Assembly (NCBI GenBank): GCA_035485735.1
Contig: DATHNS010000015.1
Coordinates: forward strand, 38,881-102,880
DNA length: 64,000 bases
Direction: 5' to 3'
Origin: Ferruginibacter sp.
GTDB taxonomy: Bacteria; Bacteroidota; Bacteroidia; Chitinophagales; Chitinophagaceae
Below are positions 20-61,369 of the stretch, in pieces. Position 1 is the first letter of the stretch; each line of letters starts with the position of its first letter. The position numbers were made by a program, and so were the translations under genes. The notes beneath the pieces are model-generated. The model was not told where the DNA came from. It ran no database searches and saw only the letters and a program-made list of their open reading frames with translations.

Positions 20-76
20 TAAGCAAAAGCCCATAAGTTTTTCACTTATGGGTTTTAACTTTTAACTTTTGACTTA
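20..76. repeat. Heptamer array (AAAGTYA/AAACCCA family) merged with a hairpin downstream of dapD
   Basis: TAAGCAA AAGCCCA TAAGTTT / TCACTTA TGGGTTT TAACTTT TAACTTT TGACTTA. Confidence 0.75.
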
Positions 77-81
77 TTATT

Positions 82-894
82 TTATACCGCGACATTGAAG
101 TCTCTAAGTGCATCGTTCAAGCTCGTCTTAAGATCTGTGGATGGTTTTCTTTGTCCGATTATCAATGCGCAGCTTACACCGTATTCACCTGCGGCAAATT
201 TCTTATTATATGTTCCCGGTATTACTACGCTTCTTGAAGGAACGATACCTCTGTATTCAATCGGCTCCGCACCACTTACATCAATTATCTTTGTTGATTG
301 TGTTAGTACAACATTAGCTCCCAGCACAGCTTCTTTTTCTACTCTAACACCTTCCACTACAATGCAGCGGCTACCAATAAAACATCCGTCTTCAATAATA
401 ACCGGACTGGCTTGTAATGGCTCCAATACACCGCCGATACCTACGCCACCACTTAAATGTACATGTTTTCCTATTTGCGCGCAACTACCTACCGTTGCCC
501 ATGTATCAACCATTGTTCCTTCATCTACAAATGCGCCGATATTTACGAAGCTGGGCATCAGCACTACATTCTTAGCTACATAAGCTCCATATCTTGCAAC
601 AGCGCCCGGCACTGCTCTTACACCCAGTGCTGCGTAACCACTTTTTAATTTCATCTTATCATAAAACTCAAATGGAGGCATTGCTAATGTTTCCATAGTT
701 TGAATACCAAAGTACATTAATATGGCTTGCTTTACCCATTCATTTATCTGCCAGCCATTTGCGATTGGTTCGGCAGTACGTAATCTTCCTTTGTCCACTT
801 CTTCAATTACATCTTTTACAGCCTGTGTGTATTTGGCGTCTTTTAGCAATTCTCTGTTAGCAAATGCTGCCTGTATCAATTGTTGTAAATCCAT
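82..894 (-). CDS. dapD: 2,3,4,5-tetrahydropyridine-2,6-dicarboxylate N-succinyltransferase
   Basis: W..NEWVKQAILMYF, FYDK, VLMPSFVNIGAFVDEGTMVDTWATVGSCAQIGKHVHLSGGVGIGGVLEPLQA hexapeptide-repeat signature. Confidence 0.97.
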   Translation of the reverse strand: MDLQQLIQAAFANRELLKDAKYTQAVKDVIEEVDKGRLRTAEPIANGWQINEWVKQAILMYFGIQTMETLAMPPFEFYDKMKLKSGYAALGVRAVPGAVARYGAYVAKNVVLMPSFVNIGAFVDEGTMVDTWATVGSCAQIGKHVHLSGGVGIGGVLEPLQASPVIIEDGCFIGSRCIVVEGVRVEKEAVLGANVVLTQSTKIIDVSGAEPIEYRGIVPSRSVVIPGTYNKKFAAGEYGVSCALIIGQRKPSTDLKTSLNDALRDFNVAV

Positions 895-948
895 TATACT
901 TTTATTTTGCGCGAAAATAATTAATAGTAAGTGTAAAAAATAATTTGA

Positions 949-1731
949 TTATTTATCCTTTGCAGATTGTTTTTGTTCCAGGTAAATCATTTTAAGCTTG
1001 GCATATTTTTGCAAAGTAGTATTGGCGTGGGCAACAGCCAGCAGCCAGCCTCTCCAGCCATCCAAAAAACCTCCCCTCAAAATAAAGGCTTTAATGAAAG
1101 TAAATATCGGACTGATCGTCAATTTTATAAAGCCTGGATCTCTTTTACCTGCTTTAAAATATTCCGCTGCCGATAAGCTGCTATATCTATCCATTTTTAT
1201 GCTATGTTCCGAAACGTTCCTGTAAGTGTAATGAAGCAAATATCCTTTTAACAATGAGGTGGCAAGCGTTGAATCAAATACAAGATCCTCATGCACCAGC
1301 TTGTCGTTCCATTTGGCAAAAGACTTATGGTATAATCTTACTTTGATATCAGGATTTTCCATGCCATGCCTGATAAATTTCCCATAGTAAAAATTCAATC
1401 TTCTACATTGATATATTGATTGTTTGAAACCTTCTTTTTTTACCTGTTGTATGCTTTCGATCAACCGGTCATCCAATACCTCATCCGCATCTAATACTAA
1501 AATATAATCATTGGCTGTTTTACTTACGGCAAAATTGCGTTGGTTACCAAAGCCCAGCCAATCCTGCGTAATGAATGTTACACCCTTTTTAATACAAATA
1601 TTTTCTGTTTGATCAGTGCTGCCGCTATCCACCACAATGATCTCATCCGATACTTTCCATGCAGCATCGAGCGTAGCAGCAATATTTTGCTCCTCGTTGT
1701 TGGTTATAATAATGGTAGATAATTTATCCAT
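949..1731 (-). CDS. Glycosyltransferase family 2 (WaaE/KdtX-like, probably LPS core)
   Basis: LSTIIITNNEE, VVDSGSTD, GFGNQRNFA, LVLDADE, LVHE, LLHYTY, GFLDGWRG. Confidence 0.9.
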   Translation of the reverse strand: MDKLSTIIITNNEEQNIAATLDAAWKVSDEIIVVDSGSTDQTENICIKKGVTFITQDWLGFGNQRNFAVSKTANDYILVLDADEVLDDRLIESIQQVKKEGFKQSIYQCRRLNFYYGKFIRHGMENPDIKVRLYHKSFAKWNDKLVHEDLVFDSTLATSLLKGYLLHYTYRNVSEHSIKMDRYSSLSAAEYFKAGKRDPGFIKLTISPIFTFIKAFILRGGFLDGWRGWLLAVAHANTTLQKYAKLKMIYLEQKQSAKDK

Positions 1732-1763
1732 TTGAGGGCTGCAATATACAATTAATATAGCGC

Positions 1764-1794
1764 TTTGTGCTTCTCAAAAGCAACTGTACCTTTG
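1764..1794 (+). promoter_or_regulatory. Bacteroidota housekeeping promoter for the GT4-tsaC operon
   Basis: TTTG (1764) then 19 nt then TACCTTTG (1787), matching the -33/-7 consensus. Confidence 0.75.
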
Positions 1795-1813
1795 CCATTA
1801 ATAGTTACTTATT

Positions 1814-2965
1814 ATGAATATAGGATATGACGGCAAAAGGGCTTTTCAAAACAAAACAGGTTTGGGTAATTATATCCGATCGCTGATCGCTATCCTTACC
1901 CATCATTATCCGCAGCATGACTATACTTTATTTGCGCCAAAAATAACCGGCCTGTTTGATGTCACTGCTTTTCAAAACGTAAAAGTAATTGCCCCGCAAA
2001 CTTCATTAGGCAAACGTTTCCCCGGCTTATGGCGCAGGAAGGGCATGTTAAAAGAGATCGTCAATAATAAGACAGATATATTTCACGGCGTGAGCAATGA
2101 AATTCCGAACGGCATAGAACATACTACTGTAAAGACTGTGGTAACGGTGCATGATCTTATTTATGAGCGTTATCCTGAAACCTATACGCTCGATGTTCGT
2201 TATGTAAGCCGATGGAAAATAAAACATGCCTGCAAACACGCGAATGCCGTTATTGCCATTAGTCAGCAGACAAAAAATGACCTGATGCATTTTTATGGTG
2301 TTGATGAAAATAAAATTTCAATCTGTTATCAAAGTTGCAATCCTATTTTTCAAAGAGTAGTGGGTGAAGCAGAAAAAAATGCTATAAAAAAAAGATACAA
2401 CCTGCCTGATACTTATTTTCTTTTTGTAAGTTCCATTACCGGGAGAAAAAATTTAATTGCTGTTTGTAAAGCATTGGTATTATTGAAAGATGCAACAACC
2501 GTTCCGCTGGTAATTATTGGCAACGGCAAAAAAGAAAAAGAAGAGGCCAAAAAATTTATGTCTACAAATGGTATCTCCGACAGATTGATATTTCTAAATG
2601 AATTGCCGCAATCAAAAGAAAGCAATTTCACTACAGCAGCCGATTTTCCTGCTATATATCAGCAAGCACTTGCATTAGTTTATCCATCTATATTCGAAGG
2701 TTTTGGCGCGCCATTGTTAGAAGCATTGTGCAGCGGCCTACCGGTTATCAGTAGCAATACATCTTCCCTGCCTGAAGTTGGCGGTGATGCGGCCCTGTAT
2801 TTCTCTCCGCATGATCATGCAACGTTGGCTGCGCACATGCTGCAAATTTCAACTGACAGCGAGCTTGTTACTGCAATGCGTAAAAAAGGATTTGCACAGG
2901 CACAAAAATTCACCACACAAAAACATGCTGATAGCATCATGCAGGTCTATCAAAAAATACTATGA
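1814..2965 (+). CDS. Glycosyltransferase family 4 (GT-B)
   Basis: IGYDGKRAFQNKTGLGNY, VVTVHDLI, VYPSIFEGFGAPLLEA, SSLPEVGGDA. Confidence 0.92.
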   Translation: MNIGYDGKRAFQNKTGLGNYIRSLIAILTHHYPQHDYTLFAPKITGLFDVTAFQNVKVIAPQTSLGKRFPGLWRRKGMLKEIVNNKTDIFHGVSNEIPNGIEHTTVKTVVTVHDLIYERYPETYTLDVRYVSRWKIKHACKHANAVIAISQQTKNDLMHFYGVDENKISICYQSCNPIFQRVVGEAEKNAIKKRYNLPDTYFLFVSSITGRKNLIAVCKALVLLKDATTVPLVIIGNGKKEKEEAKKFMSTNGISDRLIFLNELPQSKESNFTTAADFPAIYQQALALVYPSIFEGFGAPLLEALCSGLPVISSNTSSLPEVGGDAALYFSPHDHATLAAHMLQISTDSELVTAMRKKGFAQAQKFTTQKHADSIMQVYQKIL

Positions 2966-3534
2966 TCGATTTTACAAAAGATATCGAAACTTGCCTCCAG
3001 GTATTAAAAACCGGCGGACTTATTTTATATCCTACGGATACGATCTGGGGTATAGGCTGTGATGCAACGAACGAAGAAGCCGTAGCAAAGATCTATCAAT
3101 TAAAAAAACGGTCTGATGAAAAAAGTATGATCGTTTTGCTGGCAGAACAAAGAGATATTCTCCATTATGTAGCGCAGCCCGACCTGGGCGTATTTGAATT
3201 TTTAAGCGAAGTGGAGAAACCTACTACGGTTATTTATAACGGTGCGATCGGATTAGCGGAAAATCTGATCAACAAAAATGGAACAATCGCTATTAGAATC
3301 GTTGAGGAAACATTTTGCAACCATCTGATCAAACGTTTTAAAAAACCTATCGTATCTACTTCTGCTAACGTTTCCGGTTATCCGCCACCACAAATATTTT
3401 CCGATATCGATATCCTGATAAAAGACGGGGTTGATTATGTCGTAAACTATCGCCAGGATGATTCGGTGATCGCCACGCCATCTGCTATCATCCAATGGAA
3501 CCCGGATGGCAGTTATGATATTATTCGTCCTTAA
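2962..3534 (+). CDS. tsaC: L-threonylcarbamoyladenylate synthase (Sua5/YrdC)
   Basis: GGLILYPTDTIWGIGCDA, KIYQLKKR, PIVSTSANVSG; ATGA overlap with upstream gene. Confidence 0.93.
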   Translation: MIDFTKDIETCLQVLKTGGLILYPTDTIWGIGCDATNEEAVAKIYQLKKRSDEKSMIVLLAEQRDILHYVAQPDLGVFEFLSEVEKPTTVIYNGAIGLAENLINKNGTIAIRIVEETFCNHLIKRFKKPIVSTSANVSGYPPPQIFSDIDILIKDGVDYVVNYRQDDSVIATPSAIIQWNPDGSYDIIRP

Positions 3535-3535
3535 A

Positions 3536-4123
3536 TTAAAATAAGCTAAGTCCTAATCCTACCTGGATACTCTGACTCTTCCATTGATCTTCGTTTGCTA
3601 TATCATGTATATTACTTAAGCCAACGGCATAGCGGCCGTATACATGAACGCTACGAATCTTTATTTCCAGGCCGCCTAACAAACTAAAATCTCCCATCTT
3701 AAAAGCATTTTGTCCGTTTTGTTGATAGCTGTCGCCAGGGTTTAATAAGATACTGTATTGCGGGCCAGCCTGTAATGCAATTCCTTTTGACAATTTATAC
3801 TCCAATAACAACGGAATGCTCAGGTAACTTAAATTGATATGCGATATTTTATTAAGATCGGGATTATAAATAGCATCAGTACTGGTAGCCGTATCCACAT
3901 TCACCTGGCTGAATAATACTTCCGGTTGAAGGGCCCAATGTTTCCCTAAGCTAATATTTGCAAAAGCACCTGCATGATAACCAAAGCTAAATTCATTACT
4001 AAAAGCTTCGCCTGATATCTTGTTAATATTGGCGCCCGCTTTTATGCCAAAATCAAATGATTGAGAATAGGCCGCAGAAAATGCAAATACTACGATGATC
4101 GTTGAACAAAGAATCTTTTTCAT
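3536..4123 (-). CDS. Outer-membrane beta-barrel protein (porin/PorT-like family)
   Basis: Signal peptide, FGIKAGAN, LQPEVLFSQ, YLSIPLL, GRYAVGLSNI, C-terminal Phe. Confidence 0.8.
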   Translation of the reverse strand: MKKILCSTIIVVFAFSAAYSQSFDFGIKAGANINKISGEAFSNEFSFGYHAGAFANISLGKHWALQPEVLFSQVNVDTATSTDAIYNPDLNKISHINLSYLSIPLLLEYKLSKGIALQAGPQYSILLNPGDSYQQNGQNAFKMGDFSLLGGLEIKIRSVHVYGRYAVGLSNIHDIANEDQWKSQSIQVGLGLSLF

Positions 4124-4354
4124 AAGTTTATTTTATTGGTCTAAAGATAATATAACAAACCGTACCAGTATAAATTTAGATTGTTACAGCCATGTTATTA
4201 TACATAGACCAAATAAAAAGAACAAAGTTTATGCCACTACAATAAAGATAGAATTATCTTTTTCACATTTCTTTATACTTCTGTAACAGTTACCTATTAA
4301 CGTTTCGGGAATAAATGCATAACCAACCAATTTTCACAATTTAAATTCCTGTTT

Positions 4355-5302
4355 ATGAAACTTACGATTACGGCTTTTATAGCCGCTGCTATTCTTATGT
4401 CTTCCTGCGGAAGGGGCTCGAGCCCTTATACAGCAACTACCGAATCTGTGGAAGACTCAACCAATATTAGTTCCTCCCCGGATTCTCAAACTATTGTTGA
4501 CCCAAACACTATTGATACACGAGTGCCCAATATGCTATATGGCAATAGTATTCAGCGAAAATTAACCAAAACTGTCAATTACGATTTTAAAGTAAGCGCT
4601 GTTGAAAAAACAGCGTATGAAATTGATAAGATCGTTAAACAAATGAACGGCTATACAACAAATGCCGTTTTAAAAAATGAGATCACCAACACCCAACAGT
4701 TTCCTTATTCAAAAGATTCATTGTGTGAAGTATCGACTTACAATACAACAAACGTGATTACAATTTTTGTACCTGCCGAAGAACTGGATAGTATGATGCA
4801 ATTGATACAACAAAAAATCGGCTTTCTACATACACGCGATATCGCGGTAGAAGATGTGAGCTTAAAAATATTGGGCAATGAAATGGATATAAACGCGCAA
4901 AATAAGTATACAGAAAAAATGCAGGCGCATACCGACAATGAACCCCATAAATTAAACCAGGTAGATGCGGTTCAAAAAAATATTTTAGAAAATGACATTC
5001 AGGGAAACGCGACAGTGATCGATAATATTAAATTGAACGATCAGGTAAAATACAGCCAGGTAAATATTACTTTAAGTCAGGATCCTTCGATTGTAAAATC
5101 TATTGTACCCAACACCAATATTGCTTCAATGCATACGCCGTCTTTTATTAGCCGCATGTCTGCCGCATTTGAAAACGGATGGGATTTTTGTATCGATGCA
5201 ATTGTTGCCGTTACGAATATCTGGTTTGTTTTTGTCTTAATATTTATTGTCTGGATGATGATCAAAAAGAGAAAAATATTGTTTGGCTTTTTGATAAAAT
5301 AA
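4355..5302 (+). CDS. DUF4349-like lipoprotein with C-terminal transmembrane helix
   Basis: Lipobox MSSC, V..V..T..EI...V.QMNGY, EDVSL, coiled coil, C-terminal hydrophobic helix. Confidence 0.7.
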   Translation: MKLTITAFIAAAILMSSCGRGSSPYTATTESVEDSTNISSSPDSQTIVDPNTIDTRVPNMLYGNSIQRKLTKTVNYDFKVSAVEKTAYEIDKIVKQMNGYTTNAVLKNEITNTQQFPYSKDSLCEVSTYNTTNVITIFVPAEELDSMMQLIQQKIGFLHTRDIAVEDVSLKILGNEMDINAQNKYTEKMQAHTDNEPHKLNQVDAVQKNILENDIQGNATVIDNIKLNDQVKYSQVNITLSQDPSIVKSIVPNTNIASMHTPSFISRMSAAFENGWDFCIDAIVAVTNIWFVFVLIFIVWMMIKKRKILFGFLIK

Positions 5303-5367
5303 AAAATCCGTACCCTATTAAATCTACGTTACTTTTAAGCTTATTGGGTTTTACCACAAAAAAAGCT

Positions 5368-5375
5368 TACCTTTG
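5368..5375 (+). promoter_or_regulatory. -7 promoter element for deaD
   Basis: TACCTTTG = TAnnTTTG, about 150 nt upstream of the ATG. Confidence 0.65.
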
Positions 5376-5523
5376 CGGGAATTATTTATTTACGAGTATT
5401 GCATGAAGAGCCTTAATGGCTGTTGGAATTAGTTTTGATTTTGATACTTTAATTCAGTTTAAAGGTGTTTTCCCAAATTAACAACAGGTAAGTGGCTATC
5501 ATGTAAACATTAAAACATTTTAC

Positions 5524-7287
5524 ATGAACGCATTTCAAGCCTTAGGCTTAAACGAACAATTAGTACAAGCGATAACCGATCTAGGTTTCGAAAACCCCAC
5601 CCCCATTCAGGAACAAGCTATCCCGGTTTTATTATCAGGAACAACAGATTTCGTTGGATTAGCACAAACCGGTACAGGTAAGACTGCCGCATTTGGTTTA
5701 CCGTTATTACATTTAATAGATCCTGCACAAAGACATCCGCAAGCGTTGATCGTTTGTCCGACAAGAGAATTGTGTTTGCAAATAACCAATGACCTGATGA
5801 TCTTTATGAAACACACTAAAGGTGTTTATACAGAAGCGGTTTATGGTGGTACATCGATCATGATGCAGATCAAGAATCTTAGAAAAGGGGTGCATATTGT
5901 TATTGCAACACCGGGTAGATTAATTGATCTGATCGAACGTAAAGCGATCGATCTTCAAAAAGTAAAATATGTAGTATTAGATGAAGCCGATGAAATGTTG
6001 AACATGGGCTTTAGAGATGATATTGATTTTGTATTGAAGAACACGATCAACAGAGAAAGCATTTGGTTGTTCAGCGCAACAATGCCACCTGAAGTTAGAG
6101 CGATCGCTAAGAACTTCATGGAAAATCCTAAAGAAATCACAGTTGGTAAAAAGAACAGCGGTAACGCAAATATCGATCATCAATTCATGACCGTTGCAGC
6201 ACACCAGCGTTACGAAGCATTAAAAAGAGTGATCGATTTTAATCCGGGCATGTATGGTATCATTTTTACCCGTACCAAATTAGATGCACAGGATATAGCA
6301 GAAAAATTAACAAGAGAAGGATACGAGATCGAAGCATTGCATGGTGATCTAACCCAGCAACAACGTGATAAAGTAATGGGCCGCTTTCGTCAAAAACATT
6401 TACAGCTATTGATCGCAACGGATGTTGCGGCTCGTGGTATTGATGTTGATGGAATTTCGCACGTTATCAATTACGAATTACCTGATGATATTGAAGTCTA
6501 CACACACAGAAGTGGCCGTACGGCTCGTGCCGGTAAAACAGGTATCTGTTTATCAATTTGTCATTCAAGAGAAACATTCAAGATCAAGCAATTGGAAAGA
6601 ATGGTTAACTCTCAGTTCCATAAAATAGACGTACCAAGCGGTAAAGAAGTTTGTCGCAAACAATTTTTCCATTTCATGGATAAATTAATGTCGGCCGATG
6701 TATCTAACGGCGATTACGAAACTTATATGCCTGATCTTCAGGAAAAATTCAAGGACATCACTAAAGAAGAAATTTTACAAAGAGTTGCTTCATTAGAGTT
6801 CGATCATTTCTTGAAATATTACGAAAATGCGCAGGACCTGAATACAAATATGCGTGCTCCGGCCAGAGATAGCAGGGATGGCAATTTTGCTCCGAGAGAT
6901 AATGATAGCAGAAAAGAAAGAAGCAATTTCAACCAACGCGATAACGGTTATACAAGATTGTTCATCAACCTTGGAACGAAAGACGGTTTTTACAAAGCGA
7001 ATTTCTTACAATTCATTTTGGATGAAAGCAATCTAAAAAAAGAAGTGCTTGGCCGTGTTGACATGAAAGAAATGAATAGTTGGGTAGAAGTTGATAAAGG
7101 CTCTGCAGCAAAAATGATCAGTGCATTGGATGGCAAAAAACATAGTGGCCGCTCAATCAGAATGAATGAAGCTGACGGTGGGTTTAAACCAGGCGGAGAT
7201 CGTGGTGGTGAAAACCGAGGAGGCGGAGAACATCGTGGTGGTAGCGGCGAAGGAAGAAAAAGAACCTATAGCAGAGATAGGAACTAA
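5524..7287 (+). CDS. deaD: DEAD-box RNA helicase with DbpA-type RNA-binding domain (DeaD/CsdA-like)
   Basis: PTPIQ, AQTGTGKT, PTREL, TPGR, DEAD, SAT, LHGD, ARGID, HRSGRTARAG; RLFINLG domain and RGG tail. Confidence 0.93.
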   Translation: MNAFQALGLNEQLVQAITDLGFENPTPIQEQAIPVLLSGTTDFVGLAQTGTGKTAAFGLPLLHLIDPAQRHPQALIVCPTRELCLQITNDLMIFMKHTKGVYTEAVYGGTSIMMQIKNLRKGVHIVIATPGRLIDLIERKAIDLQKVKYVVLDEADEMLNMGFRDDIDFVLKNTINRESIWLFSATMPPEVRAIAKNFMENPKEITVGKKNSGNANIDHQFMTVAAHQRYEALKRVIDFNPGMYGIIFTRTKLDAQDIAEKLTREGYEIEALHGDLTQQQRDKVMGRFRQKHLQLLIATDVAARGIDVDGISHVINYELPDDIEVYTHRSGRTARAGKTGICLSICHSRETFKIKQLERMVNSQFHKIDVPSGKEVCRKQFFHFMDKLMSADVSNGDYETYMPDLQEKFKDITKEEILQRVASLEFDHFLKYYENAQDLNTNMRAPARDSRDGNFAPRDNDSRKERSNFNQRDNGYTRLFINLGTKDGFYKANFLQFILDESNLKKEVLGRVDMKEMNSWVEVDKGSAAKMISALDGKKHSGRSIRMNEADGGFKPGGDRGGENRGGGEHRGGSGEGRKRTYSRDRN

Positions 7288-7320
7288 TTGTAAATGGTAA
7301 ATTATAAATGGTAAATATTA
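7286..7320. repeat. Heptamer tandem array (AATGGTA family)
   Basis: AATTGTA AATGGTA AATTATA AATGGTA AATATTA, starting in the helicase stop codon. Confidence 0.85.
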
Positions 7321-7332
7321 CCAGATATTATT

Positions 7333-7370
7333 AAAAAAATAACCCGCGAAATTTCGTGGGTTATTTTTTT
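7333..7370. terminator. Bidirectional intrinsic terminator between deaD and mutS
   Basis: AAAAAAATAACCCGCGAA-AT-TTCGTGGGTTATTTTTTT. Confidence 0.88.
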
Positions 7371-7477
7371 AATGTTCAATTATCAACGCTCAATATTCAA
7401 TGTTCAACTGATGAACTTCAAATAGTAAGGAGTTTTATAATTGAGAATTGAACATTGAATATTGAGCATTGAACATT
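7371..7477. repeat. Heptamer-arm palindrome (TTGARHA family), copy 1
   Basis: Left AATGTTC AATTATC AACGCTC AATATTC AATGTTC; right TTGAGAA TTGAACA TTGAATA TTGAGCA TTGAACA. Confidence 0.9.
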
Positions 7478-7483
7478 TCCTTA

Positions 7484-10078
7484 TTACTTCAAAAATCCTT
7501 TGATTTCCTGCAATTTCAGCAGCGCCTCAACCGGCGTTAACCGATTAATATCTGTGCTTTCTAATAATTTTCTTATCTCATCAAAAGTAGCTGAATGGGC
7601 ATCAAAAATGCTAAGCTGCATTTTCGGCGCGGCGATTTGTTTCACGGTATCTTCGATCGGACTGCCTACATGCGTTTCTTCCAATTGAACTAAAATTTCA
7701 TTGGCCCTATCGATCAATGATGGTGGCATACCGGCCATACGGGCAACATGAATACCAAAGCTATGTGTGCTGCCGCCCGGAGCCAGCTTACGTAAGAAGA
7801 TAATTTTATTACCTACTTCTTTATTAGTAACATGATAATTTTTTACGCCTTCAAATTTGTTTTCGAGTTCATTCAACTCGTGGTAATGCGTGGCGAATAA
7901 TGTTTTGGGTGAGTATTGGCTTTTGTGTAAATATTCAACAATACTCCAGGCGATAGAGATACCATCATAAGTCGATGTTCCTCTTCCTATTTCATCTAAT
8001 AATATCAAACTTCGGGAAGTAATGTTATTGATAATACTAGCAGTTTCATTCATCTCTACCATGAATGTACTTTCGCCACCACTTAAATTATCTGATGCTC
8101 CTACCCTTGTAAATATTTTATCTGTCAGCGGAATTTTTGCATCCGATGCCGGCACAAAGCTACCCATATGCGCCATCAACGTGATTAGGGCAGTCTGGCG
8201 AAGGATCGCACTCTTACCGCTCATATTCGGACCGGTCAAAATAATGATCTGCTGCGTTTCAGGATCGAGAAAAATATCGTTGGAAATATATGATTCGCCT
8301 ACCAGCAGATTTCTTTCGATCACAGGGTGCCTGCTATCTCTCAGGTCTAATATATTACCATCACTGATCGATGGTTTTTTATAATTGAAATGAAGCGCGT
8401 TGTTGGCAAAGCAAGTCAGGCAATCTAATGTTGCTAAAACATTCCCATTGATCTGCATGGGCGCGATATAATCCTGCAATTCATTCAACAGCTTTTCAAA
8501 CAGCTGCAATTCAATCTGCAATATTTTATCTTCTGCGCCGAGTATTTTTTCTTCGTAGACTTTTAATTCCGGTGTGATATAGCGTTCTGCATTTGCCAGT
8601 GTTTGTTTACGTATCCATGTTTCAGGAACTTTAGGCTTGTGCATATTGGTCACTTCCAAATAATAACCAAACACATTGTTGAAGCTTATTTTCAAAGAAG
8701 AAATACCTGTTGCCTGTGCTTCCTTTTGTTGCAGCTCTAACAAATAATCTTTACCGCCGCTTGATATTTTTCTTAGCTCATCTAATTCTTCATTGATGCC
8801 CATTGCGATCACGCCGCCTTTATTGGCTAAAGCCGGAGGGTTTTCATTGATCTCCTTACTAATCCTTTCTAAAATTAATTTGCAGGGGTTTAAAGAATCA
8901 CCCAAACGTTTTAAATAATCATTGCCAATAGATGCGCAAATGGTTTTGATCGCATCTACCTGTTGTAAGCCTTTGGCAATTTGTAATACTTCGCGCGGGT
9001 TCACTTTTTTCAGTGGCACTTTACTCACCAGTCTTTCAATATCACCGGCCTGTTTAACATGTGCCGCTATCTGCGTTCTAACGTCTACTTCTTTTATCAA
9101 AAATTCAACCGTGTTTAAACGTTCGTTGATCTTGATGATATTATTCAACGGTAATACCATCCAGCGTTTCAACATACGTGCGCCCATTGGTGAGACCGTA
9201 TTATCTATCACTTTCAATAAAGTGTTGCTCCCTTCGGCTCCGCCAAATAATTCAAGGTTGCGGATAGTGAAGCGATCCATCCATAAATGTTCTTCCCTAT
9301 CGATCCTTTGAATAGAAGTGATATGTCCTAGATTAGGATGTTCTGTATCTTTTAAATAATGCAATATTGCACCGGCAGCAACAATGCCTGCAAACATCCC
9401 TTCTACGCCAAAACCTTTTAAGCTATGTGTGCCAAAATGTTTTAATAAGCTTTCAGTTGCATATGCATCTGCAAAGATCCATTCATCTAAAGTGTAGGTA
9501 AAAAATTTAGAGCCGAAGGTTTCTTTGAAATTTTTCTGCTGGTTACGCTGAAAAATAACTTCTGCCGGCTGTAAGCTTTGTAATAATTTATCAGCGTATT
9601 CTTTATCGCCTTCGGCCAGAAAAAATTCTCCGGTACTGATATCTAAAAAAGCAATACCTATTTTATTTTCATTAAAATGTAAACCCGCTAAAAAATTATT
9701 TTTATTATGCTCTAATAATTTATCGCTGGTAGCAACACCTGGCGTCACCAATTCGGTTACGCCGCGTTTTACAATTCCTTTTACATCTTTAGGATTTTCT
9801 AATTGATCGCAGATGGCTACGCGATAACCAGCCTTCACTAATTTATGTAAATAAGTATCTAAAGAATGATGAGGGAATCCTGCCAGCTGAGAAGAATCTG
9901 CATTGCCATTATTTCTTTTGGTTAATGTGATGCCCAATACTGCCGATGCGTTAACAGCATCCTGACCAAAAGTTTCATAAAAATCGCCTACCCTAAATAG
10001 TAAAATAGCATCTGGATAGCGTGCCTTGATAGCACTATGTTGTTGCATTAATGGAGTTTCCCCGGTTGCCTTGGCCAT
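7484..10078 (-). CDS. mutS: DNA mismatch repair protein MutS
   Basis: TPLMQQ, FRVGDFYETF, ITGPNMSGKS-type P-loop, FMVEM, DEIGRGTST, ATHYHEL. Confidence 0.98.
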   Translation of the reverse strand: MAKATGETPLMQQHSAIKARYPDAILLFRVGDFYETFGQDAVNASAVLGITLTKRNNGNADSSQLAGFPHHSLDTYLHKLVKAGYRVAICDQLENPKDVKGIVKRGVTELVTPGVATSDKLLEHNKNNFLAGLHFNENKIGIAFLDISTGEFFLAEGDKEYADKLLQSLQPAEVIFQRNQQKNFKETFGSKFFTYTLDEWIFADAYATESLLKHFGTHSLKGFGVEGMFAGIVAAGAILHYLKDTEHPNLGHITSIQRIDREEHLWMDRFTIRNLELFGGAEGSNTLLKVIDNTVSPMGARMLKRWMVLPLNNIIKINERLNTVEFLIKEVDVRTQIAAHVKQAGDIERLVSKVPLKKVNPREVLQIAKGLQQVDAIKTICASIGNDYLKRLGDSLNPCKLILERISKEINENPPALANKGGVIAMGINEELDELRKISSGGKDYLLELQQKEAQATGISSLKISFNNVFGYYLEVTNMHKPKVPETWIRKQTLANAERYITPELKVYEEKILGAEDKILQIELQLFEKLLNELQDYIAPMQINGNVLATLDCLTCFANNALHFNYKKPSISDGNILDLRDSRHPVIERNLLVGESYISNDIFLDPETQQIIILTGPNMSGKSAILRQTALITLMAHMGSFVPASDAKIPLTDKIFTRVGASDNLSGGESTFMVEMNETASIINNITSRSLILLDEIGRGTSTYDGISIAWSIVEYLHKSQYSPKTLFATHYHELNELENKFEGVKNYHVTNKEVGNKIIFLRKLAPGGSTHSFGIHVARMAGMPPSLIDRANEILVQLEETHVGSPIEDTVKQIAAPKMQLSIFDAHSATFDEIRKLLESTDINRLTPVEALLKLQEIKGFLK

Positions 10079-19895: not shown

Positions 19896-20966
19896 ATGCA
19901 GCGCCTTTCCAAAATAATAACCACACAATTCAAAAATTACTCACTCACATCTTTCAATTTTACTGAAAGAGTAGTAGGCATTTGCGGACCTAACGGGAAA
20001 GGCAAGACAAATCTTTTGGATGCTATTTATTACCTGAGTTTTACCAAAAGCTATTTCTCCAAATCTGATTCGATGAATATTTTATTTGGAGCAGATGGAT
20101 TTCGACTGGAAGGTGATTTTGGAGAACAAAAAGTTATTTGCATTCATCGCGGTATTGGAAAAAAAGAATTGTTTTTGAATGATGTTCCTTATGAAAAATT
20201 CTCGCAACATATCGGCAGGTTTCCTTGTGTGATGATCGCTCCGGATGATATTGAATTAATAACAGGCGCCAGCGAAGAACGCAGAAAATTCATTGATACG
20301 GTCTTAAGCCAGATGGATGCCGATTACCTGCAACAATTGATACAATACACCAAAGTGCTGCAACAAAGAAACAGTTTATTAAAACGCTTTGCTGAACAAG
20401 GAAAAACAGATTGGCATTTATTAGAAGTGTTAGATGAACAGTTAATAAAACCGGGAGAATATATTTACGCGAAAAGAAAAGATTTTACGGCAGCTTTGAT
20501 ACCATTGGTACAAAAATTTTACAAACAAATTGCAGATAACCATGAAAGCGTAACACTCCAGTATGAAAGCCAGCTGAACGCAAATAATTTTCAGGCATTG
20601 ATCAATCAATTCAGAGAAAAAGATTTCCTGTTACAACGTAGTAATGGTGGCGTACACAAAGACGATATCACTATACAACTAGACGGGCAAATATTTAAAA
20701 ACATTGCATCACAGGGACAACGAAAGAGTTTGTTATTTGCGCTTAAGCTGGCAGAATTCGAATTATTAAAAACAAAAAAGGGCTTTGCTCCATTGCTATT
20801 GTTAGATGATGTTTTTGAAAAGCTGGACAATGAGCGCATGCAAAATCTATTACACTGGGTTTGTAATGAAAATAAAGGGCAGGTCTTTATTACCGATACG
20901 CACCAGGAAAGGCTGGAGTTGGCGCTGACAGCATTAGATACGACTTACCAGATCATATCAATTTAA
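19896..20966 (+). CDS. recF: DNA replication/repair protein RecF
   Basis: FKNY, GPNGKGKTNLLDAIYYLS, ERRKFID, SQGQRK, LLLDDVF; start moved to ATG 19896. Confidence 0.95.
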   Translation: MQRLSKIITTQFKNYSLTSFNFTERVVGICGPNGKGKTNLLDAIYYLSFTKSYFSKSDSMNILFGADGFRLEGDFGEQKVICIHRGIGKKELFLNDVPYEKFSQHIGRFPCVMIAPDDIELITGASEERRKFIDTVLSQMDADYLQQLIQYTKVLQQRNSLLKRFAEQGKTDWHLLEVLDEQLIKPGEYIYAKRKDFTAALIPLVQKFYKQIADNHESVTLQYESQLNANNFQALINQFREKDFLLQRSNGGVHKDDITIQLDGQIFKNIASQGQRKSLLFALKLAEFELLKTKKGFAPLLLLDDVFEKLDNERMQNLLHWVCNENKGQVFITDTHQERLELALTALDTTYQIISI

Positions 20967-21037
20967 TGGTAAATTGTAAATGGTAAATGGTAAATTGCAG
21001 TAGCAATGATCCCTTATATCATTTACAATTTACAATT
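20965..21037. repeat. Heptamer-arm palindrome (AATGGTA family)
   Basis: AATGGTA AATTGTA AATGGTA AATGGTA AATTGCA ... TATCATTTACAATTTACAATT. Confidence 0.88.
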
Positions 21038-21043
21038 ACTACC

Positions 21044-21325
21044 GTGGGTGAATTTTCAATGCAAGATGCTATTAAACAATTTCTGCAGCAAAGCCGCTTA
21101 AAGAGTGGTATGCAGGCGATGCGCATTGAAGAAATATGGGAACAGATAATGGGTAAGACAATTGCGAAGTACACTGATAAAATTCAAATCATTAATCAAA
21201 CTTTATTTATCAATACAGCCGTTGGGCCACTAAAGAACGAGCTATTATATCAAAAGGATAAAATAATAGAAAGAGTAAATGAAGCCTTGGGAGAAAAAGT
21301 AATTACGGAAGTGGTGATTAAGTAA
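21044..21325 (+). CDS. DUF721/DciA-like protein
   Basis: W.QIMG..IAKYT..I.I....LFI......LKNEL pattern directly after recF; start moved to GTG 21044. Confidence 0.8.
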   Translation: MGEFSMQDAIKQFLQQSRLKSGMQAMRIEEIWEQIMGKTIAKYTDKIQIINQTLFINTAVGPLKNELLYQKDKIIERVNEALGEKVITEVVIK

Positions 21326-21404
21326 GAAGTGAAAAGTCAAAACCAAAAAGTAGAGAGACTTTATAACTTATGGGTTTTCACTTTTGCCTTTTGACTTTGG
21401 CTTA
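21325..21404. repeat. Heptamer-arm palindrome (AAAGTYA family) filling a convergent intergenic gap
   Basis: AGAAGTG AAAAGTC AAAACCA AAAAGTA ... TAACTTA TGGGTTT TCACTTT TGCCTTT TGACTTT. Confidence 0.85.
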
Positions 21405-33396: not shown

Positions 33397-33479
33397 TAAA
33401 TAAATTCAAAGAAAGAATCCCAAATTCCAGCGATGGAGTTTGGGATCTTTTCTTTCCTTTCACGAGACATTTTTTGAAA

Positions 33480-40447: not shown

Positions 40448-40602
40448 GGAATTAATATTTTCTGAATTGGGATTTTGATTTGGAGATTTGGTGATTTGTT
40501 AATCCGTAGATGTTTAAAGCAAATAAATGATGAAACGCCCCCGAAAGTTTTCGGGGAATGAAGCCAAATAGATGTACTAAGGCCGGACTCTTAATTTACC
40601 TA

Positions 40603-40710
40603 AATGTTCAATTCTCAATGCTCAATTCTCAATGTTCAACCGATTTTACATCAAAACCCTTTACTGTATTGGATTGGATATCGAGCATTGAGAATTGAAC
40701 ATTGAGCATT
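40603..40710. repeat. Heptamer-arm palindrome (TTGARHA family), copy 2
   Basis: AATGTTC AATTCTC AATGCTC AATTCTC AATGTTC ... TCGAGCA TTGAGAA TTGAACA TTGAGCA. Confidence 0.9.
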
Positions 40711-47166: not shown

Positions 47167-47230
47167 TGCTAGAACATATCAAAACGTTTACCGTTTATCA
47201 ATTATTCAGTAATTAATTATCTTTAAGTAT

Positions 47231-51069: not shown

Positions 51070-51981
51070 ATGAAAAATAATTTTTCTCATCTAAAAAGAG
51101 CATGGATATTAATTTCTATGTCTTTATTATTGATATGTGCAAGCAATGAATTTGCAACAGCCCAAAGAGGCGGAGGCCGTGGTGGCGGTGGCGGCGGTGG
51201 AAGTCGTGGTGGTGGTGGCCAGATGAGGTCTTCAGGTGGCGGAGGACAAATGAGATCTGGCGGAGGAAGGCCCGCAAGTGTGGCGCCAAGGCCATCTGGC
51301 GGACAAATGAGATCAAGCGGTGCAAGGCCGGGTGGATACAGGCCAGTGGGCGGAGGAGCCAGACCAGGCATCAGACCGGGCGGTGGTTACCATAGAGCTC
51401 CGGGTGGTTATAGGCCAGGCAGGCCGCCGGCTTTTCACAGGCCTTTTGTTTCTTATCATCGCCCTGCATATGGCCGTGCTCCATACATTTGGGGAGGCAG
51501 GCGCTTCTATAGCTACAATCCATATTTTTACCACCCATACCATCCCTATTTTTACGGATCATTCTTTCATCCTATAGGATTTTTTATGGGCTCGCTAGCA
51601 GCTACTGCGATCATTCTTAGTGTTGATGGTCAGGATTATAATTATGACCAGGGAGTCTATTATCAACGCAATGATAATGGTTATGTAGCTGTGGCACCGC
51701 CTGTGGGTGCCCATATTCCGAATCTCCCTGATGGTTACGCCACTGTTGCACTATCAGGCAGTACATTTTATTATTATGCCGGTACTTTTTATATTGATAA
51801 TGGTACCGATTATGAAGTGGTAGATGCTCCAGCGGGCGCAGTTGTATACGACCTGCCCGATGGATGTACCACTGTAAATGCAGGTAGTATTACTTATTTC
51901 CAATATAATAATACCTTGTTTCAACCCATCGTTATCAATGGCACCAATGCTTACGAAGTAGTGGAAGCACAACAACAATAA
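51070..51981 (+). CDS. Secreted Gly/Arg/Pro-rich protein with DUF6515-like C-terminal domain
   Basis: Signal peptide, RGG/RPGG low-complexity region, YV.VAPPVGA...LPDGY..V, V.APAGA.V..LPDG. Confidence 0.75.
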   Translation: MKNNFSHLKRAWILISMSLLLICASNEFATAQRGGGRGGGGGGGSRGGGGQMRSSGGGGQMRSGGGRPASVAPRPSGGQMRSSGARPGGYRPVGGGARPGIRPGGGYHRAPGGYRPGRPPAFHRPFVSYHRPAYGRAPYIWGGRRFYSYNPYFYHPYHPYFYGSFFHPIGFFMGSLAATAIILSVDGQDYNYDQGVYYQRNDNGYVAVAPPVGAHIPNLPDGYATVALSGSTFYYYAGTFYIDNGTDYEVVDAPAGAVVYDLPDGCTTVNAGSITYFQYNNTLFQPIVINGTNAYEVVEAQQQ

Positions 51982-52122: not shown

Positions 52123-52821
52123 ATGATAAAAGAAGCCGTTATACTAGCAGGAGGATTGGGCACAAGGTTACGATCGGTAGTAGCTGAATTGCCAAAATGC
52201 ATGGCAAATGTTGCAGGAAAACCATTCATTTATTATGTGGTGAAACAACTTCAAAATCAAGGTATTGAAAAATTCATTTTTTCTCTTGGGTATAAACATG
52301 AAGTAATTGAAGCATACATCAACACCGAATTTGCAGCGATCCATGCACAGTTTGTAATTGAAAATGAACCGCTAGGCACTGGCGGGGCTATACAATTAGC
52401 CTGCAGAAAAACTACGACAAAAGATGTATTGGTACTGAATGGCGATACCATGTTTTCAATCGACGTACAAAAACTGGCGGCAGCGCATACTTCATTCGTT
52501 GCTGATTGTACACTGAGCCTGAAACCCATGGAGCATTTCGACCGATATGGTGTTGTAGAATTAAATAAGGACCATACCATTGCTTCTTTCAAAGAAAAAC
52601 AGTTTTACGAAAAAGGGTTGATAAACGGAGGTGTCTATGCATTGCAAACAGAAAATTTTCTTCAAAAACAATTACCAGAAAAGTTTTCTTTTGAAAAAGA
52701 TTATCTCGAAAAATATTTTATCGACCACAAGATGTATGGGGACATACAAGATGAATATTTCATTGATATAGGAATTCCTGAAGATTATCAAAGAGCGCAA
52801 ATAGAATTTGAAAAATGGTAA
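52123..52821 (+). CDS. Sugar-phosphate nucleotidyltransferase, HddC-like
   Basis: LAGGLGTRL, PKCMA, EPLGTGGA, LNGDT, FSFEKD, FIDIG.PEDY. Confidence 0.85.
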   Translation: MIKEAVILAGGLGTRLRSVVAELPKCMANVAGKPFIYYVVKQLQNQGIEKFIFSLGYKHEVIEAYINTEFAAIHAQFVIENEPLGTGGAIQLACRKTTTKDVLVLNGDTMFSIDVQKLAAAHTSFVADCTLSLKPMEHFDRYGVVELNKDHTIASFKEKQFYEKGLINGGVYALQTENFLQKQLPEKFSFEKDYLEKYFIDHKMYGDIQDEYFIDIGIPEDYQRAQIEFEKW

Positions 52822-52834
52822 ATGGTAAATTATA
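52814..52834. repeat. Short AATGGTA-family array supplying the stop codon of the HddC-like gene
   Basis: AATGGTA AATGGTA AATTATA; AAA TGG TAA = K-W-stop. Confidence 0.7.
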
Positions 52835-52837
52835 CAA

Positions 52838-54382: not shown

Positions 54383-54393
54383 AAAATTTTATC

Positions 54394-55452: not shown

Positions 55453-55461
55453 ATTAATTTA

Positions 55462-56037: not shown

Positions 56038-56092
56038 TCTTTTTTAAAAATGGATAATTGATAATGGTATAAAAAACGAACGGCTTGTTTGA

Positions 56093-58432: not shown

Positions 58433-58518
58433 ACAGCTGGTGTGGGTTTAATAAACTGAAAAGGCTATTTAGTATATATACTATGTAGTAAACGAAAAGG
58501 TTGGGTAAGAAATTGTAA

Positions 58519-59160: not shown

Positions 59161-59165
59161 TGTTG

Positions 59166-61283
59166 TTACAATTTTAATTTTTTGATTATCTCATTTACTT
59201 GTTTCTTAAAAATATCAAGGTTTTTCATTTCCTGCTGAATGAAACTATTTTCTTCCAAGGAGCCTATTACCTTGTTCATTTCCTGGTTATTATCATACAC
59301 CATTTTACGAAACTCATTGGAATAATCTTTAGCTCTTGAATTATAGATCCCGTCACACATCCATGTTTTTGTTTGTACTGCCTGTTGTACCAATTGCTTG
59401 AAAAATTCAGCCGTAAATTGTTTGGGTGTAATATTCAACACCTCTAATAAACTGGTGTAAGCATGTGTTATTTTATCTACCCCATACGCTTCTCCCTGCT
59501 GATGATAAAAATTATGCAATTCATCCCAACCTTTTATTTTGCCAGATTTTACTTGTCGCTTTGCCTTTTCAACTTCCGTCTTTTGAATTAATTGTCCGCC
59601 GATATTCAACCATTCGCTTCGCTGTACTTTAGCTGAAAGCGTCTTTTTAAAACTATCAAAATCCTTAAAACTATTTCCTTGAATATGCAATAACAGTTCA
59701 ATCGTACCATAATAACGGATCAGTTCTTTAAAAAGATTGATCGATTGCGGTACTTTAATTATATCTGTTTCGCGATGCGTATTTTCCCAACCTGTCACAG
59801 TTGCAATTCCTTTTTCATTCGGCTGTAACTTTTCAAGCAATTGTAATGAATCAAACAACTCGTTGATGGTATCCGGTGCTAAATAATCATATTCCAGCAA
59901 TTGCGTTTTTTCTGTACGAAGATCGCGGGCCTCGTATTTCCAGGTATTACGCGCCAGTGCATACATATTATACATGAACCAATAACCGGGCATTACGATC
60001 AGTTTATCGTGCGTTACATCATTACTCACCAAACTAAAAGGTATAGGTATATTTAATTCTGCAGGATAATCCCCTTTTGTAAGAATAGTAAACGAAGCGA
60101 ACTTTGAATTGTGTTTTAAACTCACGCATAAGCCTGGCCAAAAACCACGGCCAGCAATGATCTCGCCATCCGGACTTCTACTGTTATGATTGCTTCCTAT
60201 AGTGGCGCCTGCGGCAACATTACTTTGTCCCATTAATAGTGACGCACATAAAAAAGAATTATTATGATGCTGTTCATGCCCCGGAAATATCAATGAATTT
60301 AAAACTTCACAGCAGGAAATAGTAGAATTATTCCCTAAGTATGAGTTGATCAAACGCGCACCATATTTTAATTGCGAATGTGATGCCATCACAAAACGAA
60401 CCGCTTTAACACCATAGAATATCCGACAGCCGAAACCCACTATCCCATTTACCATTTCGCAACCTTCTCCAATTTGTGACCTGCGTTCTTTATCACTATT
60501 GATGGTGAGGTTCTTTAGTTTATTAGCTCCTTTTAGATACGCATCGCTGCCTATCCAAACATCCTTAACTATTTTACAATTTTTGATAACGGTTCTATCA
60601 CCCACTTTACCATAATAACCTCTTTGTTTATCAAATTTATTTTCTGTAAACTCTTTGAACTTATCCAACAATGCTTCATCATCCCTGTACTTGCTCCATA
60701 AATAAGCATCGCCCGGCAACATGCCATTAAATGGAATTACCTGCCGGCCGCCATTTTCATTACATATCTCCATCCAGGTGCGTAGGTTTTCATCTTCACC
60801 TTCTTTTAAAATACCATTACCAAATTTGGAAATATCTGTAGTCGCCAGTTCATTTACATTTACGATCATCACATCATTGCCAATAATATAATGGCTTACA
60901 TAACTCACATTATCTATACAAACATTGTCTCCAAAATCGCAACTGATGATTGTGCTGTTATATAAACCAACAGGCAAACGCAGGTTATGAAATTCGATAT
61001 AATAAGGCTCTAATTTACCGATGCGAATTAGTCCGTAAAATTTGCAATTTTTTACCAGTTCAGGATTAAAGGAATGGGAGACAAATATTTTATTCCAATC
61101 GTCAGATGTATTGCGATTGTGTACCAACACTTCGATCTCCTGCGATGTAAGCTTACGGTACTCAATACCACTGCGGTTTTGCATATCACGCAGGTGATAT
61201 TCATCCTTGCCTTTAGGTATATATTTTGGATCTATAAAACTGTAACCAAGCGAAGCAACCGGATATTTTTTTATAATATTCAT
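59166..61283 (-). CDS. DUF4954-family protein (left-handed beta-helix region)
   Basis: YR.LT..EI.VL..N.N, SNVAAGATIGSNHNSR..DGEI.AGRGFWPGL, DYLAPDT. Confidence 0.85.
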   Translation of the reverse strand: MNIIKKYPVASLGYSFIDPKYIPKGKDEYHLRDMQNRSGIEYRKLTSQEIEVLVHNRNTSDDWNKIFVSHSFNPELVKNCKFYGLIRIGKLEPYYIEFHNLRLPVGLYNSTIISCDFGDNVCIDNVSYVSHYIIGNDVMIVNVNELATTDISKFGNGILKEGEDENLRTWMEICNENGGRQVIPFNGMLPGDAYLWSKYRDDEALLDKFKEFTENKFDKQRGYYGKVGDRTVIKNCKIVKDVWIGSDAYLKGANKLKNLTINSDKERRSQIGEGCEMVNGIVGFGCRIFYGVKAVRFVMASHSQLKYGARLINSYLGNNSTISCCEVLNSLIFPGHEQHHNNSFLCASLLMGQSNVAAGATIGSNHNSRSPDGEIIAGRGFWPGLCVSLKHNSKFASFTILTKGDYPAELNIPIPFSLVSNDVTHDKLIVMPGYWFMYNMYALARNTWKYEARDLRTEKTQLLEYDYLAPDTINELFDSLQLLEKLQPNEKGIATVTGWENTHRETDIIKVPQSINLFKELIRYYGTIELLLHIQGNSFKDFDSFKKTLSAKVQRSEWLNIGGQLIQKTEVEKAKRQVKSGKIKGWDELHNFYHQQGEAYGVDKITHAYTSLLEVLNITPKQFTAEFFKQLVQQAVQTKTWMCDGIYNSRAKDYSNEFRKMVYDNNQEMNKVIGSLEENSFIQQEMKNLDIFKKQVNEIIKKLKL

Positions 61284-61290
61284 TCTTTAT

Positions 61291-61369
61291 AATGGTTAAT
61301 GGTAAATGATAAATGGTAAATGATTTATAAACGCTTGCACGCTACATTTACCATTAACCATTAATAATT
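61291..61369. repeat. Heptamer-arm palindrome (AATGGTA family) between glmS and DUF4954
   Basis: AATGGTT AATGGTA AATGATA AATGGTA AATGATT ... ATTTACC ATTAACC ATTAATA. Confidence 0.88.

Follow-up and report, generated by a model that had tools for sequence, protein, structure and literature searches.

AT-rich heptanucleotide repeat hairpins beside stop codons in a stretch of Ferruginibacter DNA

Why should the gene ends of one bacterial genome be lined with short repeats that have a length of 7 nt in common but differ in sequence? The question is posed by a 64,000-nt stretch of Ferruginibacter sp. (assembly GCA_035485735.1, contig DATHNS010000015.1, positions 38,881 to 102,880; the whole stretch is called the window below), in which an earlier note had described 7-nt periodicity at 11 or more loci and seen in it the best candidate for an undescribed system. 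Relatives found through RecF group the window with Ferruginibacter (Chitinophagaceae), the top matches being soil metagenome-assembled genomes (93-97%). Among long simple repeats, heptamers are reported to be the most over-represented in many bacterial genomes and, more than thirty years on, neither a function nor an origin has been established for them. We conclude with considerable confidence that the elements of the window are heptanucleotide simple sequence repeat (SSR) hairpins of the same kind as the STRR sequences (short tandemly repeated repetitive) of cyanobacteria and the GGGAATC repeats of Xanthomonas, of which Ferruginibacter provides an AT-rich example.

Period, placement and folding of the arrays

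The window was parsed into 57 genes by a simple open reading frame (ORF) rule, about 90% of it being coding, and periodicity was measured in its spacers extended by 12 nt on either side (6751 nt) against 200 dinucleotide-preserving shuffles, a check that the earlier note had itself proposed. At a lag of 7 nt the same-base fraction was 0.326, compared with 0.295 in the shuffles (z 5.8), followed by lag 14 (z 4.7) and lag 21 (z 3.5); lags 6, 8 and 9 gave z scores of 1.7, 1.6 and -1.1. Counts of local stretches in which 12 or more of 14 positions match gave 43 at lag 7 (expectation 0.3), compared with four at lag 8 and none at lag 6 or 9. Nineteen lag-7 segments were found window-wide and 15 of them are intergenic or at a gene edge, a count that takes in 21015-41, which looks coding only through an overlong dciA call; Tandem Repeats Finder recovered the same arrays. 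With about 16 elements in 64 kb, the periodicity claimed for at least 11 loci is borne out.

An array consists of three to six diverged 7-nt units, and two inverted arrays can pair on a single strand into an AT-rich stem of 20-35 bp. The units in the window belong to at least five alphabets, all rich in A and T (AATGGTA, AATGTTC, AAAAGTC etc.). The comparison set of 33 related loci (cited here by L numbers) comprises about 495 kb, 64.5 kb of it intergenic and 431 kb coding. The intergenic part holds 54 tandem segments of period 7, compared with five of period 4, two of period 5, nine of period 8, six of period 9 and none of period 6 or 10-12; the coding part, for all its length, holds five of period 7. 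At a looser threshold 116 arrays yielded 52 distinct consensus heptamers, including CGACCAC, AATTGGG, AATAGGC and GATGTAA, which indicates that what the arrays have in common is the period and not a motif. The alphabets had been thought unrelated; their units do differ, but many are only one or two substitutions apart and grade into each other. A few arrays with the same hairpin architecture have period 8 (10699-10770, 40471-40498, and one in L019 directly upstream of the spoU-like start codon; units GCAAAG, GATTTGGN and GTTTATTG), so the preference for 7 is strong, not absolute.

The placement of the elements is far from random. Nine of the 16 are no more than 6 nt away from a stop codon, where 1.6 would be expected from random intergenic placement and none of 5000 simulations reached nine; a distance-to-stop test had been suggested together with the observation that several arrays begin in or right after a stop codon, and that observation holds, including for the genes that had been named, which we confirmed as encoding a DEAD/DbpA helicase, RecF, DciA (DUF721), an ABC permease, an NTP-transferase and GlmS. 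Closeness to start codons was not significant among the same 16 elements (four vs 1.9 expected). In eight of nine co-directional spacers, counted from coordinates, the gap on the stop side is the smaller one, and the elements take up the spacer from the upstream stop onwards, leaving some 5-25 nt free ahead of the next start or reaching as far as the convergent stop. Counted over 17 loci of different species, the gene-pair setting is co-directional in 19 cases, convergent in seven and divergent in five, where intergenic length would predict 15.7, 3.3 and 11.9 (chi-square p 0.013), and the depletion of divergent regions (five vs 11.9) is significant in itself (p 0.006). Both stop-codon adjacency and divergent depletion fit with transcribed spacers, although some elements nonetheless lie in divergent promoter regions (19770-19873, 40603-40710).

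These arrays also form the longest inverted repeats of the window (7371-7407/7441-7477, 40603-39/40683-710, 20964-90/21012-38, 61290-308/61345-63, and further 12763-85/12833-55, 17964-94/18000-30 and 21320-42/21368-90). The view that most elements are inverted arms around a spacer of 15-40 nt is right as to the arms, since about 9-11 of the 16 elements are inverted pairs, but the loops range more widely, from about 14 to 59 nt in the window and from 11 to 65 nt over all loci; single direct arrays stand at 7286, 52808, 56047 and 47185. Among 36 hairpins with loops of 10 nt or more and arms of any periodicity, from the window and 32 related loci, lag 7 was the best lag in 31. Compared with shuffled sequences, six of the ten regions folded gave z scores between -4.2 and -8.1 and three folded weakly (21315-405, 12755-865, 17385-470); the region 7365-7485 folds alike on either strand (-38.1 vs -39.2 kcal/mol). 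Two classes of hairpin separate cleanly, canonical terminators with loops of 3-9 nt and flanking A/T tracts, and hairpins with 7-periodic arms and larger loops. As hairpins downstream of genes, the elements resemble Rho-independent terminators, and two of them, 30-52 and 33417-33446, are canonical (GC-rich stem, loop of 3-8 nt, U-tract) while being built from or embedded in heptamer units; in contrast, most elements are large-looped, AT-rich and U-tract-less, and many lie inside operons.

The recF-dciA hairpin and other orthologous sites

The best-sampled element is the AATGGTA hairpin between recF and dciA (20963..21041, fold z -5.0), whose left arm (20963-21000) begins in the recF stop codon and whose right arm (21015-21041) leaves a gap of 3 nt to the GTG at 21045, the conserved start of dciA. 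An AATGGTA hairpin fills this spacer in the window and in L019, L024, L033, L034 and L001/L022; the spacer is empty (13-14 nt) in L004, L020, L021 and L023. All filled genomes start dciA with GTG, and the empty ones and the outgroups with an ATG preceded by TTTACACC; the common GTG points to a single gain of the hairpin, a conclusion in tension with the neighbour-joining tree of recF, which mixes filled and empty states.

Between the window and L019 the hairpin arms differ at two of 55 positions and the loop at 12 of 25, compared with 50 of 98 four-fold degenerate sites in recF and 11 of 26 in dciA, so that the arms are about ten times better conserved than neutral sites. In L033 and L001 a left-arm change from GTAAAT to GTTAAT is matched by a right-arm change from ATTTAC to ATTAAC; changes on both sides affect two of 26 pairs, 98% of the cells are paired, and both mismatches of the hairpin are G.T on the sense strand. 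The right arm of the window is shorter than those of L024, L019, L034 and L033 by exactly 14 nt, i.e., two units. To judge from these alignments, the arms appear to be under purifying selection for pairing, which is shown at this one well-sampled site and suggested at a second.

In L001 (2360-2678), and also in L022, a non-coding, structured and GC-richer insert of about 320 nt occupies the loop, with both arms intact; a search of Rfam returned no family match for this insert nor for the window. The public DciA call (112 aa) starts at an ATG within the left arm of the hairpin, and the conserved GTG at 21045 gives 93 aa. Relatives show this GTG to be the conserved start, so that some 19 codons of the annotated DciA (20987-21044) are in fact repeat hairpin, an example, of practical interest, of gene callers extending ORFs into such arrays.

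At other orthologous sites, too, hairpins are present or absent among relatives of similar divergence (about 45-60% difference at 4-fold sites). An AAAAGTN-family hairpin fills the spacer 3' of the peptide deformylase gene def in the window (12763..12855; fold weak, z -1.9) and recurs in five relatives with unrelated loops. Between ribH and a CCG-domain gene the window has a TAAGTTN array (17399-17426) with a degenerate partner (17445-17467; 17399..17467 as a whole, fold z -0.4), where L019, L022 and L024 have a good TAAGTTN hairpin and L004, L020 and L023 a short GC hairpin. The spacer between the TPR gene and ribH is filled in the window by a TTTTAAAT-type hairpin of period 7/14 (17960..18030, fold z -4.2) and in the relatives by another alphabet (GATGAATTAAGAAT), or it measures 29 nt or only 5 nt. 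At the 3' end of dciA an AAAAGTN-family hairpin (21320..21401, fold z -2.1) spans the convergent stops of dciA (21325) and the ABC permease gene (21402); eight of nine relatives have a hairpin here, and the window is one unit longer than L021. In the mutS/spoU spacer L004 and L019 bear different hairpins at different points. The period-8 (GCAAAG) hairpin 3' of the spoU-like gene (10699..10770) lies in a segment of about 120 nt that is present in the window and L022 and absent in L019, L004 and L023; this insert (10693-10831) is flanked by a 9-nt ATTAATTA[AG] duplication. No target-site duplication was evident at the polymorphic recF-dciA, ribH or dciA 3' sites.

The hairpins of one relative are particularly few. 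L023 (Ga0302300_1000040), a 21-kb locus with 91% RecF identity, has no hairpin at six orthologous sites that are filled in relatives, the def and dciA 3' sites among them, and its spacers there have shrunk to between -3 and 33 nt; the array load therefore differs between lineages. Intergenic length differences among the relatives are concentrated at array sites, and of clean unit indels we claim two only, one of 14 nt and one of 7 nt. Variation at strain level was sought in an ENA soil contig, a Logan contig and other assemblies with the same proteins, all of which were identical to the window. By mapped coordinates the window extends some 5.5 kb (1-5538) beyond the end of the ENA contig (k141_3572828, 119,878 nt) and must thus stem from a different, longer assembly. 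At three sites where filled and empty states can be compared the unit alphabet resembles the ancestral flank (TTTACACC upstream of dciA vs ATTTACC units, ACTTATT vs ACTTTTN, and ATTTTGG vs GTTTATTG), which fits with growth from a local seed by slippage.

Relation to known repeats, origin and possible role

The same architecture has been published before, and for this reason the pattern is not an undescribed system (PMC4692102, PMC2670836, PMC4679880). The heptameric SSRs of Xanthomonas (GGGAATC) and Nostoc PCC 7120 (GGGGA(C/T)T) have mostly about four units per array and lie between genes in 89-93% of cases; some three quarters are arranged in convergent inverted pairs from which a stem-loop can form (for Xanthomonas campestris pv. 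campestris, with 186 arrays, 70-75 are given as so paired). They lie on average 28 nt from the upstream ORF and 160 nt from the next, with a strong bias to or over the stop codon, no more than 7-8% separate divergent ORFs, sister species differ in array length and sequence, and they have been read as G-quadruplex formers (Rehm et al. 2015, PMC4692102). The Ferruginibacter arrays agree with them in being 7-nt, mainly intergenic, often inverted pairs, stop-adjacent, rare between divergent genes and variable between relatives. They differ in being AT-rich and of many alphabets, without a tract of three or four G per unit, whereas the Xanthomonas and Nostoc repeats are G-rich and have essentially one alphabet per genome. 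Since arrays that are too AT-rich to form a G-quadruplex show the same geometry and the same position beside stops, neither the quadruplex nor the unit sequence can be the common principle, which we take to be period plus pairing. What the window adds is an AT-rich, multi-alphabet case beyond the reach of a G-quadruplex explanation, and direct evidence of selection on the arms.

Cyanobacterial STRRs are likewise 7-bp tandem units, intergenic or intercistronic (e.g., between hupS and hupL) and hairpin-forming; roles in transcript stability and translational coupling have been proposed for them, and their function is unknown (PMC2670836). Our arrays match them as 7-nt tandem units in spacers, able to form hairpins, but in a different phylum. 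Mazel's definition of 1990 reportedly divided the STRRs of Calothrix into three families, each with about 100 copies. Direct repeats of the heptamer TAACTGA are known from Beggiatoaceae, Cyanobacteria and five Bacteroidetes (MacGregor 2015, PMC4679880), and other heptamer repeats occur in spacers of Gramella and Aequorivita and are absent from close relatives (PMC4679880); the part of that paper which relays Mrazek's finding names heptanucleotides as the commonest long SSR. The TAACTGA arrays, mostly direct, just upstream of start codons and with one dominant unit, resemble the Ferruginibacter ones in being intergenic heptamers, but in the latter stop-adjacent inverted pairs dominate and TAACTGA is not among the units.

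With regard to origin, the earlier note had inferred a common generating mechanism, either templated or by slippage. The combination of 52 units with one period speaks for slippage, and templated synthesis of 7-mers found no support. Polymerase slippage as a source of heptamers has been proposed before, by Mrazek in 2007 as relayed in PMC4679880 and PMC4692102. We therefore suppose that replication slippage in favoured steps of 7 nt may lengthen arrays, often from a local seed motif, and that either arm-to-arm template switching or selection might keep the arms complementary. Changes of arrays by whole units and unit-by-unit co-variation of the arms are shown in part. We put the chances of a slippage origin at about even.

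As to role, the elements invite comparison with repetitive extragenic palindromic (REP) elements and their composites, bacterial interspersed mosaic elements (BIMEs) and REPINs (REP doublets forming hairpins). Like these, they are extragenic but transcribed, located at 3' ends and in co-directional spacers, arranged as inverted doublets with a less conserved spacer, dispersed in families and facultative at any site; they differ in that a REP unit is an imperfect palindrome of 20-40 nt with a GTAG/CGTC tag and a REP-associated tyrosine transposase (RAYT) as partner, whereas a Ferruginibacter arm consists of tagless tandem 7-mers. Stabilisation of mRNA and termination have been proposed as roles of REP, BIME and REPIN elements, and ribosome stalling for REP elements near stop codons. 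In the transcript, the Ferruginibacter hairpins could similarly block exonucleases, pause or terminate transcription, be sites of processing, or influence how ribosomes are released at the stop codon next to them, and they would be dispensable at any single site. Selection for pairing, transcribed spacers abutting stops, depletion in divergent regions and dispensability at single sites together fit with a cis-acting transcript hairpin of the REP kind, and we tentatively suggest that the hairpins act in this way at 3' ends and between cistrons, while regarding it as somewhat less probable than the slippage origin. The explanation that we prefer overall, namely STRR-type hairpins that arose by slippage, are selected for pairing and play a REP-like part in the transcript, may be as readily right as wrong when taken as a whole. 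The conservation of the arms with unit-level compensation and the filled and empty sites among close lineages make the question of function more testable, and the natural pairs of filled and empty alleles and the array-rich and array-poor sister genomes are material for reporter assays and phylogenetic profiling.

Several observations weigh against this explanation. The evidence for selection comes mainly from one site, automatic pairwise alignments of orthologous arrays are noisy (gaps of 5, 6, 7 and 14 nt, not cleanly multiples of 7), and a step of 7 over 6 or 8 has no explanation. Apart from the two canonical terminators, loops of 14-59 nt and the lack of a U-tract are unlike efficient terminators. 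In soil metatranscriptomes this genome is represented by no more than a few short contigs, with too few reads, from which one learns only that arrays with such alphabets occur in transcripts of some origin. Over all hairpins there is no strand asymmetry of G.U vs A.C mismatches (10 sense, nine antisense), so that a role at the level of RNA is not demonstrated over one at the level of DNA. Finally, alphabets turn up again at sites that have nothing to do with each other, and this extends to a genome of only 67% RecF identity; many metagenome contigs, too, share no more than the arrays, their flanks being unrelated. Convergent slippage and a dispersing element account for these facts equally well.

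Dispersal ranks second, and is possible though rather unlikely: each alphabet would be a family of small mobile modules, like REPs/REPINs or miniature inverted-repeat transposable elements (MITEs), with the arms as their ends, copied to new intergenic sites by a trans-acting enzyme or by recombination and not grown in place. Besides the matches just mentioned, it would account for the arms 7371-7407 and 40603-39, 89% identical over 38 nt despite their unrelated sites, for AAGTCAAAAGTTAAAACCCATAAGT, which L004 and L034 have in their dciA 3' hairpin and the window in its element at 40-79, for the match of one arm to the distant genome L013 (96% over 27 nt), for the clean presence/absence polymorphisms of 60-120 nt among relatives and for the insert with a flanking 9-nt duplication; conserved arms with variable spacers are, moreover, the pattern of REPINs. 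However, the loops are unrelated between copies, so that there is no common internal sequence as in a MITE, and neither a target-site duplication nor defined termini are evident at the other polymorphic sites, and it is on these two grounds that we place dispersal second. In addition, 52 alphabets would call for either a large number of families or an enzyme blind to sequence, a single arm is no palindrome and bears no GTAG/CGTC tag, matches between arrays of similar units are partly trivial, and the likeness of units to the local ancestral flank at three sites suggests growth in place. No transposase or RAYT is found among the annotated genes of the window, most of the genome lying outside it. 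Conservation of unit order between non-orthologous copies was considered as a proof of mobility and rejected, the variable positions being too few to exceed chance.

A role of the DNA itself appears improbable. Here the repeats would extrude cruciforms or be bound as duplex by a nucleoid protein, gyrase or a factor of the SMC (structural maintenance of chromosomes) type. REP/BIME elements are bound in this manner, and the binding step here would be 7 bp. Arms that are almost perfectly complementary and fold equally well on both strands, the missing overall asymmetry of G.U pairs and the elements in divergent, possibly untranscribed regions agree with it. Divergent depletion and tight stop adjacency nevertheless fit transcribed spacers, both mismatches of the best-sampled hairpin are G.T on the sense strand, and 52 alphabets speak against a sequence-specific DNA binder.

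It is a little less probable still that the period is set by a trans-acting factor, such as a protein that binds single-stranded nucleic acid with a heptamer footprint, or a polymerase or repair activity that proceeds in steps of 7 nt. If it were so, the hairpins would be a genome-wide regulatory layer written or read by this factor. The scattered lineages that bear arrays (heterocystous cyanobacteria, Xanthomonas, Beggiatoaceae, Chitinophagaceae and other Bacteroidota) would have the factor in common, and array-poor lineages such as L023 would have lost it. A dedicated system of this sort, in which a Csp-, S1- or RRM-type protein with a 7-nt footprint served as global post-transcriptional reader or an enzyme wrote the 7-mers, we hold to be very unlikely. 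The conserved period with an unconserved sequence and the unequal array load of sister lineages, down to the six hairpinless sites of L023, would suit it, and heptamer repeats recur in phyla that share Csp-, S1- or RRM-type proteins. Small RRM RNA binders are used by Bacteroidota in place of Hfq and CsrA, and the window contains a gene for a 112-aa RRM_1 RNA-binding protein (50474-50812, minus strand; Pfam E 7e-22), a conceivable reader of single-stranded repeats. CspB of Bacillus subtilis, moreover, binds as one protein per heptamer (reviewed in PMC4679880). Against this, a crosslinking and immunoprecipitation (CLIP) study of Bacteroides RbpB reported no heptamer motif (PMC11697453), paired arms would hide single-strand binding sites, and the writing of 7-mers from a template is without evidence. 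That the hairpins are a functionless by-product of slippage filling unconstrained intergenic space is equally hard to credit: every site examined can do without its hairpin, the elements take up whatever room coding constraints leave, and their alphabets turn over rapidly, but neutral slippage would neither make nor keep inverted partners, and the recF-dciA arms are far more conserved than 4-fold sites and loops and carry compensatory changes.

Two further ideas and one comparison may be mentioned here. The idea that the arrays provide stops in all three frames was rejected, because the sense strand after mutS (AATGTTC units) is stopless in every frame, as is Xanthomonas GGGAATC. A scan for sigma-70-type promoters gave fewer matches than in shuffled controls, with a model that does not cover the promoters of Bacteroidota. 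Three AATGGTA units in a row were found in 16 viral contigs, mostly giant-virus bins, as direct arrays only and without inverted partners, and are uninformative; a viral contig of 101 kb (L045, IMGVR_UViG_3300037751_000382) has at least 19 tandem AATGGTA/AATTGTA units at 7020-7170 with no inverted partner.

Remaining elements of the window

At the left edge of the window an AAAAGTN-family element (18..79, fold z -4.4), 2 nt from the stop of a THDP-succinyltransferase-like gene (82-894, minus strand), consists of the terminator hairpin 30-52 (CCCATAAGT/ACTTATGGG) between three TTTTAAC units (53-73) and a weak, complementary, A-rich arm (18-29). The convergent spacer between deaD and mutS holds two elements. 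The first, on the forward strand, is a direct array (AATTGTA AATGGTA AATTATA AATGGTA, 7286..7322) with a mini-hairpin (GGTAAATATTACC), which overlaps the stop codon of the DEAD/DbpA helicase gene (5524-7287); the second is an AATGTTC-type hairpin with five units per arm (7371..7477; arms 7371-7407 and 7441-7477, spacer 33-40 nt), 6 nt from the mutS stop (7484), with arms 90% complementary over 30 nt and fold z scores of -8.1 and -6.7. Between them stands a canonical bidirectional terminator (A7-stem-T7, 7330-7373), so that canonical terminators and repeat hairpins coexist in one spacer. A second canonical terminator that is itself one of the elements lies between ndk and a TPR gene (33408..33455), its stem being AATCCCA AATTCCA, with a 4-nt loop and A and T tracts.

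The divergent region upstream of recF has weak periodic arms (19770..19873; A-rich at 19770-99, T-rich at 19838-73) that are clearer in L001, L004 and L023. In the 473-nt divergent region upstream of secDF there is an AATGTTC/AATTCTC hairpin (40603..40710; arms 40603-39 and 40683-710) with a perfect core of 21 nt and a fold z score of -7.6, accompanied by the period-8 direct array at 40471-98. The AATGGTA/AATGGTT hairpin at 61288..61372 (arms 61288-325 and 61343-372, perfect core of 19 nt, fold z -6.3) overlaps with its right arm the stop codon of glmS (61369-71).

Three direct arrays on the forward strand complete the set. A weak, short one (CGTTTAC CGTTTAT CAATTAT, 47185..47205) is situated 19 nt 3' of the stop codon of the methylmalonyl-CoA mutase gene. 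Another (AAATGGT AAATGGT AAATTAT, 52808..52836), for which no inverted partner was found, holds the stop codon of the NTP-transferase gene (52819-21) and ends 1 nt before the next start (52838), and the third (AATGGAT AATTGAT AATGGTA, 56047..56067) lies in a 55-nt spacer between two co-directional genes on the minus strand. Apart from the heptamers, a run of 13 copies of the trinucleotide GTG (75% matches) occurs at 51179-51218 inside the ORF 51070-51981.

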